From Patescibacteria group bacterium (GTDB lineage Bacteria; Patescibacteriota; Minisyncoccia; Phycocordibacterales; UBA918), in NCBI GenBank assembly GCA_039188945.1, contig JBCCYW010000004.1, forward strand, positions 2,313 through 66,312: DNA of 64,000 nucleotides, written 5' to 3'. How positions within the stretch are numbered: position 1 is the first letter of the stretch; each line of letters starts with the position of its first letter. The notes under the pieces were generated by a model that was not told where the DNA came from, searched no databases, and saw nothing but the letters and a program-made list of their open reading frames with translations. The translations under genes were made by a program, and so were the position numbers. This document shows positions 10,585-46,787 of this stretch, piece after piece.

Positions 10585-10614
10585 TGCCCTAGTGCCTCTG
10601 GAAACTTTGCATTG

Positions 10615-10697
10615 TGCGGGCGAGAGGACTTGAACCTCCACGAGTTACCTCACTAGTGCCTAAAACTAGCGCGTCTACCAATTCCGCCACACCCGCA
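10615..10697 (-). tRNA. tRNA-Leu (anticodon TAG), long variable arm
   Basis: Reverse complement TGCGGGTGTGGCGGAATTGGTAGACGCGCTAGTTTTAGGCACTAGTGAGGTAACTCGTGGAGGTTCAAGTCCTCTCGCCCGCA. Confidence 0.85.
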
Positions 10698-10729
10698 TTT
10701 GTAACTGCACAAGTATACACTTGTACGTG

Positions 10730-10802
10730 TCCACCCACTAGGGCTCGAACCTAGGACCGTCTGCTTAAGAGGCAGCTGCTCTACCAACTGAGCTATGGGT
10801 GG
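10730..10802 (-). tRNA. tRNA-Lys (anticodon CTT)
   Basis: Reverse complement CCACCCATAGCTCAGTTGGTAGAGCAGCTGCCTCTTAAGCAGACGGTCCTAGGTTCGAGCCCTAGTGGGTGGA; C1-G72 acceptor. Confidence 0.8.
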
Positions 10803-10860
10803 ATATATAAATTGTGCGCCCGAGTTTACCGTAAAGCCTGTTGTAAAACAAGACGCATTG

Positions 10861-10947
10861 TGCCGGGAGCGGGACTTGAACCCGCACGCCGTTTGAAAGG
10901 CAGGGGATTTTAAGTCCCCCGTGTCTACCGATTCCACCATCCCGGCA
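10861..10947 (-). tRNA. tRNA-Leu (anticodon TAA), long variable arm
   Basis: Reverse complement TGCCGGGATGGTGGAATCGGTAGACACGGGGGACTTAAAATCCCC...GGGTTCAAGTCCCGCTCCCGGCA. Confidence 0.85.
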
Positions 10948-10969
10948 AAGGATGACTGGTGTATTTTGT

Positions 10970-11044
10970 CTCGACACAGGAGACTTACAGTCCCCGCAGT
11001 TTGTGTCCCACACAATCCTGCCTACCGATTCCACCATCCCGGCA
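10970..11044 (-). repeat. tRNA-like fragment: 22-23 nt exact copy of tRNA-Leu(TAA) 5' end (TGCCGGGATGGTGGAATCGGTAG), then hairpin GCAG-GATTGTGTGGGACACAAA-CTGC and an anticodon-arm-like GGGGACTGTAAGTCTCC; no T-arm
   Basis: Direct repeat of 10925-10947 located about 75 nt upstream (on minus strand) of the intact gene. Confidence 0.65.
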
Positions 11045-11114
11045 TGGAAGTGTGCGCAGCATAATAGCATAATTACTTGGTGAAAAAAGGCTCAAATGCT
11101 ACAGTATCGCTTAC

Positions 11115-11161
11115 GGCCAGGTGGCGAAGTAGATAGAGTGTGCTGGGAGCAGACTCTATCT
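11115..11161 (+). repeat. 16-nt exact copy of tRNA-Cys 5' end (GGCCAGGTGGCGAAGT) followed by hairpin AGATAGAGT-GTGCTGGGAGCAG-ACTCTATCT, 83 nt upstream of intact tRNA-Cys
   Basis: Direct repeat with 11198-11213. Confidence 0.7.
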
Positions 11162-11197
11162 GAGGTCTTAGACCGAATCGTTATCTGGCTGAAAGTT

Positions 11198-11269
11198 GGC
11201 CAGGTGGCGAAGTGGTAACGCTTCGGTCTGCAAAACCGACATGCACGGGTTCGATTCCCGTCCTGGCCT
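11198..11269 (+). tRNA. tRNA-Cys (anticodon GCA)
   Basis: GGCCAGGTGGCGAAGTGGTAACGCTTCGGTCTGCAAAACCGACATGCACGGGTTCGATTCCCGTCCTGGCCT. Confidence 0.9.
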
Positions 11270-11273
11270 CAGA

Positions 11274-16678: not shown

Positions 16679-17191
16679 CTAGCGTTGAAACTCAGTAACG
16701 ACATTCTCGATAATAGCTATAATCGCCTCAGCGCCGAGAATAATCACTCCACCAATCACGGCGTAGAGGAGGGCTCGCTGGGCTTCTTCAATCTGGCTGG
16801 AATTACCTTGGGCCATAACATATTTGAAGCCAGCATAAATAATGAAGAAGACGATGATCGGCACCATCAGAATCACTACAATATTGAGGATAGCGACCAA
16901 CAGACCTTCGAGCGAGCCGACGGTGAGGGGGTTACAGAGACGACTTGTGGTATCGCAGGGAGCAGTACCTCCGCCTCCACCAACAACGGGATTGTCTCCG
17001 CCTCCGCCTCCCAAGACTGGATTATCGCCCCCACCTCCTCCTAGAACTGGATTGTCGCCAGGACATGCAACCTCGTCTCCAAAAGGATCGAAACAGACTG
17101 CTGCCGCAGGTTCGGGCGTTATTAAGTAGAAACCAATACTTACTACTATGGTTACTGCGAGTACTATGACCTGACGAAACGTAACTGACAT
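16679..17191 (-). CDS. VirB2/TrbC-like pilin with N-terminal extension containing 3 tandem DNPVLGGGGG repeats and Cys motif
   Basis: C-terminal pilin core (LEGLLVAILNIVVILMVPIIV...EEAQRALLYAVIGGVIILGAEA); start moved to MSVTFRQ to avoid 47-nt overlap with upstream gene. Confidence 0.65.
   Translation of the reverse strand: MSVTFRQVIVLAVTIVVSIGFYLITPEPAAAVCFDPFGDEVACPGDNPVLGGGGGDNPVLGGGGGDNPVVGGGGGTAPCDTTSRLCNPLTVGSLEGLLVAILNIVVILMVPIIVFFIIYAGFKYVMAQGNSSQIEEAQRALLYAVIGGVIILGAEAIIAIIENVVTEFQR
16969..17059 (-). repeat. 3 x 30-bp tandem repeat encoding GDNPV(L/V)GGGGG within a pilin gene
   Basis: Seen directly: repeated ggattgtctccgcctccgcctccc / ggattatcgcccccacctcctcc units on plus strand. 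Confidence 0.8.
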
Positions 17192-17192
17192 A

Positions 17193-18518
17193 CTAGTATC
17201 CATTGCTAATACTAAACATAATAGCACGCACCGCCTCACTCACGCTGCTGCGGTTAGAAAGAATATCCTCTACCCCATCCGCAAAAGCTTCTGTCGCCAC
17301 AATTGGCTCTGGTGAAAGCCACCCAAACGCCGCAATCGCTGCACGATAGCGAATCTGCTCAATTGGGTTAAATGAGCCAGCAGTGAGCAGATCGCGGCGC
17401 GCTGGTGCCATAGACAAACTACTTGAGAAAAGTGAGAGCTGCTGTGGGCGACTAGCGATAGTTCTAATCGCTGCCAGCGCGCCGTTTTGATTCTGTGAAG
17501 CACGTAAGATTGCCAATCCATAGTAATCACCATAGGTACGCCGAACACTTGTACCCGCGGCCTGCGGAACTTCAGCAATATCAAAGTTAAGGTTTGGATT
17601 CAAGCGAGCAAGGTTGTCGTACTCACTTCCCAACCCCAAGTAGACAGCGAGATCACCAGCCGCAAAGGCGTTGGTATCTTGTGCCTGAACCCGATTCCAT
17701 GAATAGAGCGGGTTATTTACGGTCGAGAAGCTGGTAAAAAACTCTAGCGCACTGGTGAGCGGCCGCTGGACATTGGCGTTAACTGAACGATCAAGACTTA
17801 CCTGATAGGTACGACCATCTTCAAGCACCATCTGACTACCGCCCTGCAGTAAGAGCGTGCTCACAATCGCAAACGCGTTGGTAATATTACTGAATTCACC
17901 CAGCGCAATCGGACTCAATAAAATATTTCGATTAAAATCACGAACAACGACAGTTGGTACTACATCACCAACAATTTCTTCCCAGGTCCGCGGTGCAGCC
18001 GCGAAGTTATTGGCTGAAAAAATATCTCGATTCCAATACATAACCAAAGGATCAACCGCCAGCGGGGTGGCGTAAATACCATCTGAAAGTGTGAATATTT
18101 CTGCACCGTCAGCGTAGGTATCGAGATGGGTTCGTTGGTCGTACCCTGGAATTTGGCTATCGTACGGAATCGGAGTGATTTTCGTGCGTAGGTTCGCTAA
18201 CTCAGTATGTGGAATCAAAACTACATCTGGCGATCGCCCTTCAGCAATAGCATCGACCAACTCAGCCACAAAGGTTCGTTCGTCTAGCTGGCGATAGCTC
18301 ACCACCTGAAAATCTTCGACTTCAGCCCGAATATCTTGAATCATCTTATTGACAACCTGACGATCAAGCGTGCCCCAAATCTGTACCTGGTTGCCAAACA
18401 CTGGCGCATCAGTTTGCGATGATGGCTGGTAGGTTACAAACAGCACACCGCCAACAAACATCAGCACCACAAAAATGGCTATGAGGGCTATTTGAAATGG
18501 TCGAGGGCCGCTTTGCAT
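17193..18518 (-). CDS. Membrane-anchored extracytoplasmic protein, tentatively solute-binding-protein-like (441 aa)
   Basis: N-terminal TM anchor then large soluble domain; family assignment weak. Confidence 0.5.
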   Translation of the reverse strand: MQSGPRPFQIALIAIFVVLMFVGGVLFVTYQPSSQTDAPVFGNQVQIWGTLDRQVVNKMIQDIRAEVEDFQVVSYRQLDERTFVAELVDAIAEGRSPDVVLIPHTELANLRTKITPIPYDSQIPGYDQRTHLDTYADGAEIFTLSDGIYATPLAVDPLVMYWNRDIFSANNFAAAPRTWEEIVGDVVPTVVVRDFNRNILLSPIALGEFSNITNAFAIVSTLLLQGGSQMVLEDGRTYQVSLDRSVNANVQRPLTSALEFFTSFSTVNNPLYSWNRVQAQDTNAFAAGDLAVYLGLGSEYDNLARLNPNLNFDIAEVPQAAGTSVRRTYGDYYGLAILRASQNQNGALAAIRTIASRPQQLSLFSSSLSMAPARRDLLTAGSFNPIEQIRYRAAIAAFGWLSPEPIVATEAFADGVEDILSNRSSVSEAVRAIMFSISNGY

Positions 18519-41615: not shown

Positions 41616-42179
41616 CTAGTGCGACAAACCTAGTATAGCATGAGCAGAGATTGCTCCTTCGCGGATGATTTCGATATCATCATCCACTACTTTTATTACC
41701 GTCGACGGTTGGCCAGAACGAGGACCGTCGTCGACCACTTTGTCGATAAGCGAAGCCTTATCACCAAACTGCTTCAGGATTGCTTCGGGAGTTTGTTCGG
41801 TTGCCAAGCCAGAAACATTGGCGCTGGTGCAAGTAAGCGGGGCATTGTGTTGTTCCATGAACTCTGCAATCACCTGTTGCGCGATTGGGTCGGGAGAGAT
41901 TCGAAAACTCACTGTGTTGTCTGGACCCCTAAGATCTGGCGGAATATTTTCTTTAGCTGGCAACACTAAGGTGAGCGGGCCGGGTAGAAATTGCGAAGCA
42001 ATTTCTGCCGCTTTTGATGAAAGCTCACCATACTGCGCGATATCTTCGATATCGCGCACCAGCCACGACAAAAACTTCTCTTCTCCCCTCCCCTTTAGGA
42101 AATTTAATGATTCTATAGCAGCATCATCAAGCGCATTCGCTCCCAGCGCATAGATTGTTTCGGTTGGGTAGAGGATCAT
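41616..42179 (-). CDS. tsaC: L-threonylcarbamoyladenylate synthase (YrdC/Sua5 family)
   Basis: ILYPTETIYALGANALD... YrdC fold signature. Confidence 0.8.
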   Translation of the reverse strand: MILYPTETIYALGANALDDAAIESLNFLKGRGEEKFLSWLVRDIEDIAQYGELSSKAAEIASQFLPGPLTLVLPAKENIPPDLRGPDNTVSFRISPDPIAQQVIAEFMEQHNAPLTCTSANVSGLATEQTPEAILKQFGDKASLIDKVVDDGPRSGQPSTVIKVVDDDIEIIREGAISAHAILGLSH

Positions 42180-42185
42180 TTTAGA

Positions 42186-43064
42186 TTACTTATTTTCGAG
42201 GTAATCTATTAGTTTCTGCTTAATTAAATTTACACCTCCAATATCTGTAGATTTATAGTAATCACCCTCTGGTGTTATCTGATAAAAATCTGGGTCATCA
42301 GTGGCAAAGGATTTAATCGCCGAACCAAAGTCAATAAGGTACGGTGTCCCGTCTTCTCCAACATATACATTTCCAGTATTACCACTTATATCTCTATGGT
42401 GATATCCGTGTTCGTTCAAGAAAATTATTCCGGCTTTTAATTTTTCAAAGAAAACATCTATGTCTACACCCTCTGGCCAAGTTGCGTTGTTTCGCTCATA
42501 AATGATGTCTGAAATACTGCACCCATACAACCGTTGCATCTTGATTGCCAAAACTTCATGAGTATTAACGAAACCCTCAACAGAGGGACACAGTAAGCCT
42601 GTATTCGAATCTTCTAGCAACTTCCCACACTGGTGTTGCAACAACGCTTCTCTGGATATGTTGGCACCAATCTTTTTTGCTCTCTCCAAAAATAAGGACT
42701 TGTAGCAAATGTCTTTTTGTCTGGTACTCGCAATAACCTCACCGTTTTCTCCTTTTCCTAAAAAAAAGTCCGCGCCTTGCTCATGAGCCCGATCAAGACT
42801 CTCTTGTATCGCTTCAGGATTGTTGGTAATAACCTCCATAGTGTCTGGTATCTCAGTCCATTCACTCGGCAGCAAGGCCCGCTTTCTTAAGATCAACTTT
42901 TCAGTAAGATAATCAACAGCATCTTTGTCACTAAAATCCTCAACCTCACCCCACAACATTTCTTGCAACTCATTCGGAAACTCTGAAATCAAGACATCTA
43001 CAGCATCTGAGCCATCCTCTTGTTCAAGTTTACGTTCTATTGTTGACTTGATTCTGTCTAGCAT
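42186..43064 (-). CDS. Protein-kinase-fold protein (Gly-rich loop LGKGENGEV, ICYK lysine, HRD catalytic loop, DFG), 7 nt upstream of tsaC
   Basis: Motifs seen in translation: HGYHHRDISGNTGNVYV...LIDFGSA. Confidence 0.55.
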   Translation of the reverse strand: MLDRIKSTIERKLEQEDGSDAVDVLISEFPNELQEMLWGEVEDFSDKDAVDYLTEKLILRKRALLPSEWTEIPDTMEVITNNPEAIQESLDRAHEQGADFFLGKGENGEVIASTRQKDICYKSLFLERAKKIGANISREALLQHQCGKLLEDSNTGLLCPSVEGFVNTHEVLAIKMQRLYGCSISDIIYERNNATWPEGVDIDVFFEKLKAGIIFLNEHGYHHRDISGNTGNVYVGEDGTPYLIDFGSAIKSFATDDPDFYQITPEGDYYKSTDIGGVNLIKQKLIDYLENK

Positions 43065-43156
43065 TACAAAATAGTACCACTTACACCTCTGCTTTCAACT
43101 CATAGAAAATAAGGTTTTTTGTGTATATTTTTTGTGTATACTACTCCAACACTTTT

Positions 43157-43207
43157 GCGCATGTAGCTCAGCTGGTTAGTGGTTTGAATAAATCCCATTT
43201 ATTCAAA
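43157..43207 (+). repeat. Orphan tRNA 5' fragment (GCGCATGTAGCTCAGCTGGTTAGTGG; no anticodon/T arm) followed by perfect hairpin TTTGAATAAAT-CCC-ATTTATTCAAA, upstream of tRNA-Val
   Basis: Seen in sequence; resembles tRNA-Ile/Ala 5' halves. Confidence 0.55.
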
Positions 43208-43250
43208 CCATTTCCATTTTGAGGTCGGGCTAGAAGTTACAAATCAATAT

Positions 43251-43323
43251 GTCCGGTTAGCTCAGCTGGTAGAGCGCTACATTGACATTGTAGAGGTCAC
43301 AAGTTCAAGTCTTGTACCGGACA
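43251..43323 (+). tRNA. tRNA-Val (anticodon GAC)
   Basis: GTCCGGTTAGCTCAGCTGGTAGAGCGCTACATTGACATTGTAGAGGTCACAAGTTCAAGTCTTGTACCGGACA. Confidence 0.85.
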
Positions 43324-43406
43324 CAACACCTGGGAGGTGTTGTGTCGATGTATCACCACTGAACGCGGCCGACAAACACCTGCGACAGCTGTGTTTGTTG
43401 AGTAAT

Positions 43407-44585
43407 ATGAACATCCTCTCAATTGAAACCTCAGCCGATGAAACTGGCGTAACCATCGTGGAAGCGTTGGGTGATTTCCCGACAGCAACATACAACGTGC
43501 TTGGTAACGCTGTACGAACGCAGATTGAAATGCACCGTGAATACGGCGGCATTTTCCCGGCCATGGCCAAGCGTGAACACGCCCTCGCCTTAGTTCCCCT
43601 TTTAGAAGCGGCGGTCGCTGAACATGGTTACAAGAAGGAATCTATTTCAGACATCGAGCCTGAGTTGGAAGAAAAAATTCGCACCATTCTCGAACGCGAA
43701 CCAAGCCTGGCAGACAACCTCCTCACCTTCCACAAAGAGCATGGCCCACTTCCAATTGAACTGGTTGCCGTCACCTCTGGCCCTGGGCTTGAACCCGCTC
43801 TATGGGTCGGCGTGAACTTTGCTCGGGCTCTGTCGCTTTTGTGGAACGTTCCAATGGTGCCAGTGAACCATATGGAGGGGCATATCCTAGCCAGTATTTT
43901 TGATGTTGAAGAGGACGATGAACTAACCCGGATCGAGTTCCCAGCGCTTTCCCTTCTGATTTCTGGCGGCCACACCGAACTCGTGCGAATGGATGACTGG
44001 GCACAATATGAAAAAATTGGTCAGACTCGCGATGACGCCGTCGGTGAAGCATTTGATAAAGTCGCGCGGATGATGGGGTTGCCGTATCCGGGAGGGCCCG
44101 AGATTGGCGCGCGAGCGAAGCGAGCGCGCCTAAAGAACTTGCCGCAGTTTACTGAACTCCCGCTGCCAATGCTCCACTCGGGTGATTTAGATATGTCGTT
44201 CTCAGGCCTCAAGACCGCCGTGCGATACGCCATTGAAGGCAAAGAACTGACGGAAGAGCAAAAAGAAGCATTGTCACGAGATTTTGAAGATGTGGTTACT
44301 GAAATATTGTTGAAGAAAACTAGCGCCGCAATCGAAGATTGCGGCGCCCACACCCTCATCGTTGGCGGCGGTGTTTCAGCGAGCCCACACCTGCGGCACG
44401 AGTTCAACAAGTATTTTCTGGAGCACTATCCTGACATCTCTGTCTACTTCCCTGTCCCCGGTCTTTCTACCGACAATAGTCTTATGATTGCGCTGGCTGG
44501 CCACGCCCGCCTCTCAGAAGCTCTCGCCCCTCGCGCCACTGATTTAATACGCGCTGACGGCAACCGCTCCCTTTCAAACGAATAG
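43407..44585 (+). CDS. tsaD: tRNA N6-adenosine threonylcarbamoyltransferase (Kae1/TsaD family)
   Basis: ILSIETSADETGV, VPVNHMEGH metal-binding motif, GGGVSAS. Confidence 0.8.
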   Translation: MNILSIETSADETGVTIVEALGDFPTATYNVLGNAVRTQIEMHREYGGIFPAMAKREHALALVPLLEAAVAEHGYKKESISDIEPELEEKIRTILEREPSLADNLLTFHKEHGPLPIELVAVTSGPGLEPALWVGVNFARALSLLWNVPMVPVNHMEGHILASIFDVEEDDELTRIEFPALSLLISGGHTELVRMDDWAQYEKIGQTRDDAVGEAFDKVARMMGLPYPGGPEIGARAKRARLKNLPQFTELPLPMLHSGDLDMSFSGLKTAVRYAIEGKELTEEQKEALSRDFEDVVTEILLKKTSAAIEDCGAHTLIVGGGVSASPHLRHEFNKYFLEHYPDISVYFPVPGLSTDNSLMIALAGHARLSEALAPRATDLIRADGNRSLSNE

Positions 44586-44624: not shown

Positions 44625-46787
44625 ATGAAACAAGAGGTGCCAGAAATTTTCTTAAAGCCCTACGACTCAAAAGAGCACGAGGAAAAGCTCTACCAGATGT
44701 GGGAAGCATCAGGTTTTTTTAATCCTGATATTTGCGTAGAGAAAGGTGTAACTAAACCTGATGCTGAAGCATTTAGCATAATCATGCCTCCACCAAATGC
44801 CAATGGGCGGCTACACGCTGGACACGGCACAGATATGACGCTCAAAGACATCATGACTCGTTTTCACCGAATGCAAGGCAAGAAGACGCTGTTTCTTCCA
44901 GGTTCAGATCACGCTGGTTTTGAAACCCAAGGAGTATTTGAGAAAAAACTGCAAAAAGAAGGCCGGTCTCGCTTCGGTATGGACCGAGAGGAGCTCTACC
45001 AAGAAATCTGGGATTTTGTTCAGGAGAACAAAGGAGCTATGGAGAGCGACCTGCGAGCTTTGGGTGTTTCTTGTGACTGGTCGCGCAACACCTTTACCCT
45101 CGATCCCGAGATAGTCACCAAAGTTCAGGAAACATTCGTAAAAATGTATGAAGACGGACTTATCTATCGAGGCCGCCGAAGTATCCACTGGAATCCAAAA
45201 TTCCAAACCTCTCTCTCAGACATTGAGACAATGTTTGAAGACCGCAAGACACCTTTCTACTACTTCAAGTACGGACCGTTTACGATTGGTACCGTGCGCC
45301 CTGAGACGAAATTCTCAGATAAATATGTTGTGGTACACCCCAACGACAAGCGTTATGTAGAGTACGAGCATATGCAGGAGCTTGAAGTAGAGTGGATCAA
45401 TGGACCAATTAAGGCCACTGTCATCAAAGATGAAGCAGCTGACATGGAGAAAGGGTCTGGAGCGATGACAATTACCCCTTGGCATTCAGCGGTCGACTTT
45501 GAGCTAGCACAAAAATACAACCTTCCGATGGAGCAGATCATTGATTGGAACGGCAAGCTGCTCCCAGTTGCTGGAGAGTTTGCCGGCATGAATATTACCG
45601 TCGCCAGAGAAAAAATTGTTGAGAAACTTAAAGAGAAAGGTTTGCTGGTTGAAGTAGACGAAGACTACGTGAATGCTGTGAGGCTCTGTGAGCGAACTGG
45701 TGTCGTCGTTGAACCTCAAGTAAAAGATCAGTGGTTTGTGAAAATGGACAGCTTTGCCCAGTCTGTGCTCGACCAGCTCGCCAGTGGCGAAACAAATATC
45801 CTGACTACCACCCACGAGAAAACTCTGCGCCATTGGATGAACAACTCCCAAGACTGGAATATTTCAAGACAGATTGTCTGGGGCATCCGTATCCCGGCCT
45901 GGTTCCGCACTATAGATGGCAAAGAAGAAATGACGGCCAGTCTTACCGAACCAGCTGGTGAAGGTTGGATGCAAGACGAAGACACCTTCGACACTTGGTT
46001 TTCATCAGGCCAATGGCCAGTGCTGACGCTGCGCTATCCAGATCATCAAGACTTTAAAACCTTCTACCCTACTTCAGTGATGGAAACTGGGGCTGACTTA
46101 GTATTCAAATGGGTGCCGCGAATGATGATGTTCGGCAAATACCTGACTGGTAAGGCGCCATTCAAAACCATCTATTTCCACGGTATGGTGCTTGATAAGC
46201 ATGGTAAAAAAATGAGTAAGAGTAAAGGTAATGTGCTTTCACCGATTAAGCTAGGAGAAGAATTTGGTACTGACGCTACCCGTATGGCGTTTGTGGTGGC
46301 CAACCCTCCTGGGGCAGACATGCCGCTTTCAGAAGATAAAGTACGAGCCTACAAGAAGTTTGCTAATAAGATTTGGAACATCTCTCGCTTCACACTAGAT
46401 AGCGTTTCAGATATGTCTCACGACAGCGAACCTTCATATAGTCAGCGCGACACAGAAATTCTGGCATCGTTGGCTGATAATACTAAAGAGATCACCGAAG
46501 ACATCGAAAAATTCCGGTTACACTTAGCGGCTGAAAAGATTTATCACTATATATGGCACGAACTGGCAGACAAGATTCTTGAGGAATCGAAAGAAGTTAT
46601 TAATGGCGAAGACGTAGCAGCGAAACTAGCTCGCCAGCATGTTCTCAAGGAATGTCTCGTCACTTCTCTGAAGCTCCTCCACCCTTTCATGCCATACGTG
46701 ACCGAGGCTGTCTGGCAAGAACTACCGAAAGAAATACGTGATCGAGACATTTTGATGGTGGCGCAGTGGCCAAAATCTTCTTCTTAA
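44625..46787 (+). CDS. valS: Valyl-tRNA synthetase (compact, 720 aa)
   Basis: PPPNANGRLHAGH (HIGH), KMSKSKGNV, DTFDTWFSSGQWP. Confidence 0.8.
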   Translation: MKQEVPEIFLKPYDSKEHEEKLYQMWEASGFFNPDICVEKGVTKPDAEAFSIIMPPPNANGRLHAGHGTDMTLKDIMTRFHRMQGKKTLFLPGSDHAGFETQGVFEKKLQKEGRSRFGMDREELYQEIWDFVQENKGAMESDLRALGVSCDWSRNTFTLDPEIVTKVQETFVKMYEDGLIYRGRRSIHWNPKFQTSLSDIETMFEDRKTPFYYFKYGPFTIGTVRPETKFSDKYVVVHPNDKRYVEYEHMQELEVEWINGPIKATVIKDEAADMEKGSGAMTITPWHSAVDFELAQKYNLPMEQIIDWNGKLLPVAGEFAGMNITVAREKIVEKLKEKGLLVEVDEDYVNAVRLCERTGVVVEPQVKDQWFVKMDSFAQSVLDQLASGETNILTTTHEKTLRHWMNNSQDWNISRQIVWGIRIPAWFRTIDGKEEMTASLTEPAGEGWMQDEDTFDTWFSSGQWPVLTLRYPDHQDFKTFYPTSVMETGADLVFKWVPRMMMFGKYLTGKAPFKTIYFHGMVLDKHGKKMSKSKGNVLSPIKLGEEFGTDATRMAFVVANPPGADMPLSEDKVRAYKKFANKIWNISRFTLDSVSDMSHDSEPSYSQRDTEILASLADNTKEITEDIEKFRLHLAAEKIYHYIWHELADKILEESKEVINGEDVAAKLARQHVLKECLVTSLKLLHPFMPYVTEAVWQELPKEIRDRDILMVAQWPKSSS

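Follow-up and report, generated by a model that had tools for sequence, protein, structure and literature searches.

N6-threonylcarbamoyladenosine (t6A) belongs to the small set of universal tRNA modifications. TsaC makes threonylcarbamoyl-AMP (TC-AMP) and TsaD, with TsaE where it is present, transfers the threonylcarbamoyl group to A37. Bud32 and TsaE are ATPases which bind the active-site face of Kae1/TsaD and drive turnover. A stretch of 64,000 nucleotides from a Patescibacteria metagenome-assembled genome (MAG; assembly GCA_039188945.1, contig JBCCYW010000004.1), here called the window, raises the question whether a protein of the kinase fold belongs to this pathway in bacteria. In a region of ~41.6-46.8 kb the window carries an open reading frame (ORF) for a kinase-like protein of 292 aa with an ATG start (42186-43064, minus strand), next to tsaC (41616-42179, minus strand) and facing away from tsaD (43395-44585, plus strand) and valS (44625-46787, plus strand). 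What the analysis establishes is the kinase fold of this protein, the conservation of its catalytic residues and the gene neighbourhoods in which its relatives lie. What is new is a discrete, unnamed minimal-kinase family whose gene neighbourhoods tie it to the bacterial t6A pathway.

A minimal kinase family in Patescibacteria

The window kinase is identical to the NCBI entry 'MAG: hypothetical protein AAGA35_01850 [Patescibacteria group bacterium]', and its relatives are called either 'hypothetical' or 'serine/threonine protein kinase' in the public databases. A word-indexed protein search with the single sequence returned the query and one homologue, and alignment queries returned 5-10 proteins. 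The family emerged from an exhaustive search of 1.84 billion representative sequences, which gave 660 relatives at E<=1e-3 and 170 representative clusters at E<=1e-10, nearly all of them 220-335 aa long. When contigs were scanned, a narrow motif recovered 0 loci and a motif of the sister clade 80 loci. The hidden Markov model (HMM) of the family scored at least 130 bits at 53 loci (proteins of 228-335 aa; loci are numbered with an L below) and at most 66 bits on generic multidomain kinases. By this HMM, the family is discrete at the sequence level and cleanly set apart from generic kinases.

The GTDB record titles of the members name Paceibacterota, Kaiser-, Parcu-, Moranii-, Magasanikii-, Nomura- and Uhrbacteria. 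Almost all of these records are Patescibacteria, to which the family is apparently restricted, and the other labels, borne by a few MAGs, are doubtful. One MAG, WJJZ01 (Magasanikiibacteriota Bin_289), encodes two paralogous family kinases of 312 and 229 aa (L042 and L051), therefore the family is not strictly single-copy. Literature searches in which Patescibacteria or candidate phyla radiation (CPR) lineages were combined with t6A, TsaB, TsaD or TsaE returned no relevant paper.

We aligned 60 family sequences, which are 19-45% identical to the window kinase. Residues G105, K122, E139, P160, H223, D225, N232, D245 and F246 (window numbering) were invariant in this alignment, and G103, R224, G247 and D274 were nearly invariant. 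A sequence-only reading of the same DNA had listed a Gly-rich loop, a β3 lysine, an HRD motif and a DFG motif, and all of them were confirmed. In the window protein they appear as G103-x-G105-x-x-G108, K122, H223-R224-D225 and D245-F246-G247, together with E139, N232 and D274. G108 is not conserved, and alanine is usual at this position. The P-loop consensus of the family is LGxGxxAxV and the window has GKGENG. The catalytic loop of the family reads HRDLHxGN, with the lysine of HRDLKxxN replaced by histidine or serine, and the window subclade carries a two-residue insertion there (HRDISGNTGN). As judged from the alignment, the set of residues for ATP binding and phosphotransfer is complete in the family.

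An AlphaFold2 (AF2) model computed from the 60-sequence alignment showed a kinase fold, with a predicted local distance difference test score (pLDDT) of 91.1 and a predicted template modelling score (pTM) of 0.81. A model from a 2-sequence alignment was discarded (pLDDT 50). The modelled protein begins with a helical domain (residues 1-99; 42768-43064, minus strand), which was delimited by the AF2 secondary structure and by residue conservation and consists of helices 2-14, 18-26, 31-40, 46-64 and 84-99. Conserved positions of this domain among close relatives are F29, P30, L53, R60 and P83. It is a feature of the long-form subfamily and is absent or shortened in the short forms of 228-248 aa. 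The kinase core (residues 100-292; 42189-42767, minus strand) has a normal N-lobe and hinge, helix αE, the catalytic loop and DFG. The mere 45 residues left after DFG form a β-hairpin (strands 260-262 and 269-271) and one helix (274-291). The model is without an activation segment, an APE motif and helices αG-αI. All alignments to known kinases, by sequence and by profile, end 5-18 residues past DFG. The family has variable C-termini, which finish with the last helix. According to the model, the window ORF is an intact, minimal kinase-fold protein.

Directly 3' of the kinase gene, an iterated HMM detected a small ORF of 64-99 aa (typically ~70 aa) in 29 loci, and it often overlaps the kinase stop codon. 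It was first noticed in the contigs of the relatives P0003, P0004, P0005, P0010, P0012, P0015, P0017 and P0022, and examples are L015:8918-9112, L026:1619-1828, L028:8634-8849 and L036:8672-8881. The small ORFs are mutually homologous and poorly conserved, without any invariant residue, and a helix and three strands are predicted for them. They had no match in Pfam, among PDB sequences or in PADLOC, which leaves the Pcc1-like identity that was considered for them unsupported. The window, L001 and L004 are without the small ORF, and tsaC directly follows the kinase there.

A kinase gene and a small partner gene with overlapping stop and start codons could also be a toxin-antitoxin-like or defence module, with the kinase as a toxin and the small protein as its neutraliser. 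The window would then hold a lone remnant of such a module. The poor conservation of the partner, in which no column is invariant, is in line with this, as are the two copies in the WJJZ01 MAG and weak matches of the kinases to the defence-system components PD-T4-6, mad6 and MkoA. However, these PADLOC matches (15-46 bits) cover the generic catalytic core only, as they would for any kinase, and no HipA-type family was among the Pfam matches. The kinase of the window lineage retains all catalytic residues without the partner. Moreover, across orders the family lies among conserved housekeeping genes (valS, tsaD, glmS, polA, ftsAZ) and no mobile-element genes were seen in these contexts. We therefore regard such a module as quite improbable.

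Comparison with Bud32 and other kinases

The sequence-only reading described the locus as a KEOPS/Bud32-like arrangement. In its strongest form this would make the kinase a true bacterial orthologue of Bud32, which forms a KEOPS-like complex with TsaD and replaces both TsaB and TsaE. Several features point in this direction. Archaea fuse Kae1 and Bud32, and the kinase gene of the family likewise adjoins a gene of the TsaD/Kae1 family; in the window it is linked to both tsaD and tsaC. Like Bud32/PRPK (TP53RK, KEOPS), the family proteins are small, keep the ATP-binding and catalytic residues, have no activation segment and have a truncated C-lobe. The remote profile similarity is significant as well. 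The archaeal Bud32 model (TIGR03724, arch_bud32) was matched by 56 of the 60 members (best E 6e-13), and it was the top NCBIfam match for the short form next to tsaD at L028. In a search of the PDB with the family profile, A. thaliana BUD32 (8K20_B; PMC11077089) came 10th of 2744 matches with 55.9 bits, a score within the range of the canonical kinases.

The scores themselves argue against orthology. Against arch_bud32, which has a cut-off of 125 bits, the window kinase reached 13.7 bits (E 0.032) and the L028 short form, the higher of two relatives scored individually, 37.7 bits. Other NCBIfam models matched equally among the 60 members (Kdo kinase 56, PknB 55, UbiB 55), all of these matches lying far below the cut-offs. 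We verified Bud32 sequences against the PDB and built a profile of four of them for hhalign. The family aligned to this profile with a probability of 98.7 and a score of 109.5, and to PknB alone with a probability of 98.9 and a score of 114.6. Since the two results are similar, the family has no special affinity for Bud32. In sequence its members are generic kinase-like proteins at a roughly similar distance from several kinase families. A score of 47 to the lone yeast Bud32 was set aside as an artefact of one divergent sequence, because the four-sequence profile gives 109.5.

The motifs agree with this outcome. The GAEA P-loop and the HGDLTxSN catalytic loop of Bud32 (signature H(G/N)DLTxSN), as read from PDB sequences, are absent in the family, whose P-loop is GxGxx(G/A) and whose catalytic loop carries HRD. 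Unlike Bud32, the family has an extra N-terminal helical domain and is shorter after DFG, with the hairpin and one helix. The Bud32 chains of yeast, human and 9X4G_B share a conserved basic C-terminal tail, RGRKRxMxG, which is absent in the family; in Bud32 the tail projects into the Kae1 active site (PMC9654439; PMC11077089). Neither Pcc1 nor Cgi121 was matched by any of the 30 scanned window ORFs of 110-280 aa, and the profile of the small ORF had no match in the PDB. The neighbouring TsaD is of the bacterial type and not Kae1, and tsaE lies near the kinase in some lineages. The gene arrangement seen by the sequence-only reading is thus real, and the kinship with Bud32 that it suggested did not survive the profile comparison. 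Bud32 orthology together with the replacement of TsaE is largely refuted, and we hold a true orthologue to be highly improbable. The family shares the reduced-kinase architecture with Bud32 and not orthology, so it is an analogue at most.

The best overall sequence matches were Hanks-type kinases (PknB/Stk1; PF00069), with good alignment over the N-lobe, HRD, N and DFG. This brings in another explanation, in which the protein is a stand-alone Ser/Thr or small-molecule kinase derived from the Hanks type and unrelated to t6A, and its neighbours reflect the conserved order of core genes and the packing of unrelated genes into operons in small Patescibacteria genomes. Pkinase was the best-matching Pfam family for all 60 members; other Pfam families were matched by fewer of them (ABC1 58, APH 51, Kdo 43, RIO1 32, OspG 21). 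The top PDB and Foldseek matches were canonical kinases (IRAK4, PAK1, OSR1, CIPK, Chk1, PknB). Foldseek against the PDB returned generic kinases only (IRAK4 and PAK1, TM ~0.5), a comparison which cannot separate kinase families. The hhalign result for PknB and the public label 'serine/threonine protein kinase' or 'hypothetical' fit this explanation too. Yet at 23.3 bits (E 4.8e-5) the window kinase falls short of the Pfam Pkinase gathering score of 31.7, although other members match Pkinase better (best E 4e-18). It is also without the activation loop, the APE motif and helices αG-αI, which protein-substrate kinases use. The family as a whole lacks the lysine of HRDLKxxN and has no sensor or PASTA domains in its 228-335 aa.

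A reduced C-lobe is shared with the RIO, Kdo/WaaP, UbiB/ABC1 and OspG/NleH kinases, and the sub-threshold matches to these are of similar strength. The family differs from them by an N-terminal domain and a conserved small-ORF partner of its own, and the window protein reaches none of their family thresholds.

Linkage of the kinase to the t6A genes

In the window, the kinase and tsaC form an operon and tsaD is divergent from the kinase. Between the kinase stop codon and the tsaC ATG there are 6 nt (42180-42185), which the sequence-only reading counted differently as 7 nt, and nothing terminator-like was found at this junction. The tRNA-Val gene which that reading had placed upstream on the other strand was recovered by ARAGORN (GAC; 43251-43324, plus strand) and lies between the divergent kinase and tsaD. 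A sigma-70-like match, TTGAAA-16-TACTAT with an extended TG, lies just 5' of the kinase start (43071-43098, minus strand). It is a weak indication of a promoter, as the number of such sites around the kinase was not above that in shuffled controls. In the spacer between the kinase start and tRNA-Val there is an inverted repeat, AT-rich and with a stem of 16 pairs (43178-43212, plus strand in the terminator scan). The valS gene 3' of tsaD was identified with NF004349 (valine--tRNA ligase; 773.7 bits, cut-off 704), and the identities of glmS and an MsbA-like ABC gene near the locus were confirmed.

The window TsaC, a type 1, YrdC-like protein of 187 aa, matched Pfam Sua5_yciO_yrdC (6.4e-41) and the L-threonylcarbamoyladenylate synthase equivalog TIGR00057 (139.8 bits, cut-off 123.2). 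The TsaC proteins of the window, L001 and L015 begin 'MILYPTETIYALG' and align to TIGR00057 from model position 24, therefore the usual N-terminal helix is missing in these three. The TsaC of L026 (206 aa) retains it.

The window TsaD scored 320 bits against the bacterial equivalog TIGR03723 (cut-off 296.1) and 152 bits against the archaeal Kae1 model, which is below its cut-off of 375. Among PDB chains it matched E. coli/Salmonella TsaD with 222 bits, Qri7 with 97 and Kae1 with ~89-98. By sequence it is of the bacterial type, not Kae1. The alignment to E. coli/Salmonella TsaD starts at residue 5 ('MNIL'), which makes the ATG at 43407 the probable start. The PDB alignment is split at query residues 81/121, which correspond to chain residues 70/73. 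Compared with the TsaD of E. coli and T. maritima, the TsaD proteins of the window clade (390-446 aa) have an insertion of ~40 aa directly after helix α1 (residues 81-121 in the window protein; 43635-43757), and the TsaD of L028 (369 aa) is without it. In established structures, helix α1, which precedes the insertion, contributes to the TsaB interface in E. coli.

As the sequence-only reading had noted, the window holds neither tsaB nor tsaE. A Pfam scan found neither among 30 window ORFs of 110-280 aa, and when every window ORF of 40 aa or more was searched with HMMs of TsaE and TsaD, tsaD alone was recovered.

That reading described the linkage to tsaC and tsaD in the window, and in related genomes the linkage to t6A genes turned out to be broader. 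For the 53 family loci we collected the DNA up to at most 8 kb on each side of the kinase. A t6A gene (tsaC, tsaD or tsaE) was present at 20 of these loci, in 7 of the 15 kinase sequence clusters. By our own rough estimate, ~7% would be expected by chance for three single-copy genes, given a genome of ~0.7 Mb and a distance of +/-8 kb. The TsaC, TsaD and TsaE calls in these neighbourhoods pass the NCBIfam equivalog cut-offs (TsaE 73.7-102.7 bits against 60.1).

The arrangements differ between clades. The window clade and its sister clade carry tsaC and/or tsaD, and other clades carry tsaE; cluster 12 includes members next to tsaD and members next to tsaE alike. We found tsaC directly 3' of the kinase or of the small ORF in the window, L001, L002, L004, L015 and L020/21, and the order tsaC-kinase-small ORF in L026. 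The tsaD gene is adjacent and divergent, or lies within 6 kb, in the window, L001, L015, L019, L022, L024, L025 and L028, and its pairing with valS recurs in L015, L019, L022, L024 and L025. At L028 the kinase is a short form of 229 aa and the TsaD is 38% identical to that of the window. With verified TsaE sequences as phmmer queries, tsaE was detected near the kinase at 8 loci. It is immediately 5' of the kinase in L005 and L036, one gene away (polA, PPIase or another ORF) in L038, L052, L054, L055 and L060, and ~5 kb away in L039.

The gene context is that of the bacterial TsaB-TsaD-TsaE pathway: the window TsaC and TsaD are bacterial-type equivalogs, and TsaE equivalogs are encoded beside family kinases in other Patescibacteria. 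In Bacillus-type operons tsaB comes after tsaE, a place which the kinase and the small ORF take in several of the Patescibacteria loci. The kinase fold is unrelated to that of TsaB (ASKHA fold) or TsaE (P-loop). No TsaB appeared at the 53 fetched loci, which are flanking DNA and not whole genomes. Since tsaE is encoded directly beside the kinase in several Patescibacteria lineages, the kinase does not replace TsaE there, and the idea that it acts in place of TsaE fails for these lineages.

Some other neighbours also attracted attention. The thrS gene (L030:509-2269; TIGR00418, 648 bits) lies within 6 kb of the kinase in L030, L041, L045, L046 and L056, where no t6A gene is nearby. Its product also handles threonine and tRNA, and the proximity may be a coincidence. 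Phosphoesterase genes of the DHH family are recurrent neighbours too. A DHH/DHHA1 gene of 285 aa is operonic with tsaD and faces the kinase (L001:743-1603, L015:6653-7510, L019:2197-3054), and a different DHH gene of ~380 aa is divergent from tsaE (L036:5013-6152, L054:2990-4126, L060:4999-6213). Orthology of these two DHH types was rejected, as no BLAST similarity between them was detectable, and the window carries neither type at the corresponding position. A gene for tRNA-guanine transglycosylase (TGT; L003:270-1421) lies two genes 5' of a distant family kinase (P0048), in a separate operon. Elsewhere in the window, two small ORFs matched the type IV secretion system pilin family PF18895 (15933-16340, 9e-12; 16679-17239, 6e-7). 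At 10614-11270 four tRNA genes are clustered, three of them on the minus strand (Leu-TAG, Lys-CTT, Leu-TAA) and one on the plus strand (Cys-GCA).

A possible role in t6A formation

As a tentative explanation, which we favour without considering it probable, the kinase may assist or regulate the t6A machinery of Patescibacteria as an ATP-dependent factor, analogous to Bud32 and usually working with a small partner. Three genes of one four-gene pathway are found near the kinase, across clades and in several arrangements, which supports a link to t6A. The protein is predicted to be a cytoplasmic, catalytically competent minimal kinase-like ATPase or kinase. By analogy with Bud32 and TsaE, its binding and hydrolysis of ATP, or its phosphorylation of a pathway component, could regulate or reset TsaD. 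The logic possibly shared with Bud32 would be that of an ATPase regulating a threonylcarbamoyl transferase. We infer that such a factor would make physical contact with TsaD, TsaC or TsaE and have some effect on t6A. Since its C-lobe is truncated, it would need a protein partner, and in most lineages it may act with the co-translated partner of ~70 aa. The window lineage would have lost this small partner, and its kinase would now share a single transcription unit with tsaC.

Several observations weigh against this explanation and favour an unrelated kinase in a conserved gene order. The most constant neighbour of the kinase is the small ORF and not a t6A gene, and 33 of the 53 loci have no t6A gene in the flanking DNA. 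When all genes within 6 kb of the kinase were clustered all against all, the most recurrent families, at 7 loci each, were tsaE, tsaD, ftsA, polA and an ABC-type group, followed by ftsZ, an S1-domain protein and a DHH protein at 6 loci each. The tsaC gene recurred at 5 loci plus partial copies, and thrS at 5. Housekeeping genes such as ftsA, polA, ftsZ and thrS are about as recurrent as each single t6A gene. The block glmS-ABC-tsaC-kinase | tsaD-valS-PrsW-HSP20 is common to the window, L015 and L022, so the entire neighbourhood of the window kinase is syntenic with these two loci. The adjacency to tsaC is gone in fairly close relatives: the P0012 contigs have kinase-small ORF-glmS, and in L022 and L023 the kinase and small ORF are followed by unrelated genes. 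Finally, as the loci share phylogenetic history and are not independent, the enrichment statistics can be no more than rough.

Because of the shared syntenic block, the equally recurrent housekeeping genes and the 33 loci free of t6A genes, core synteny stays a serious rival. Against it stands the variety of gene orders, which include kinase-tsaC, tsaC-kinase, tsaD divergent from the kinase, tsaE-kinase and tsaE-polA-kinase. Such varied arrangements across the kinase clades are hard to derive from the drift of a single ancestral block. Taking these together with the missing activation segment and catalytic-loop lysine, we judge a kinase unrelated to t6A to be possible, though somewhat less likely than the accessory factor.

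A bolder form of the t6A link is that Patescibacteria have a t6A transfer complex of a third type. The kinase, as an ATPase and in most lineages together with the small protein, would dock on the bacterial TsaD as a true subunit. It might take on the scaffold role of TsaB, for which none of the family loci showed a gene, and might work alongside TsaE. Such a bacterial system would have converged on the Kae1-Bud32 pair of KEOPS or be a remote relative of it. We consider this unlikely.

If the kinase is indeed an accessory factor of t6A formation, the t6A machinery would gain a new variant within the huge Patescibacteria radiation with its reduced genomes. It would also bear on the origin of the Kae1-Bud32 partnership and offer a tractable pair of small proteins. 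Even if the link is one of synteny alone, a discrete, unnamed minimal-kinase family with a conserved small partner has been defined.

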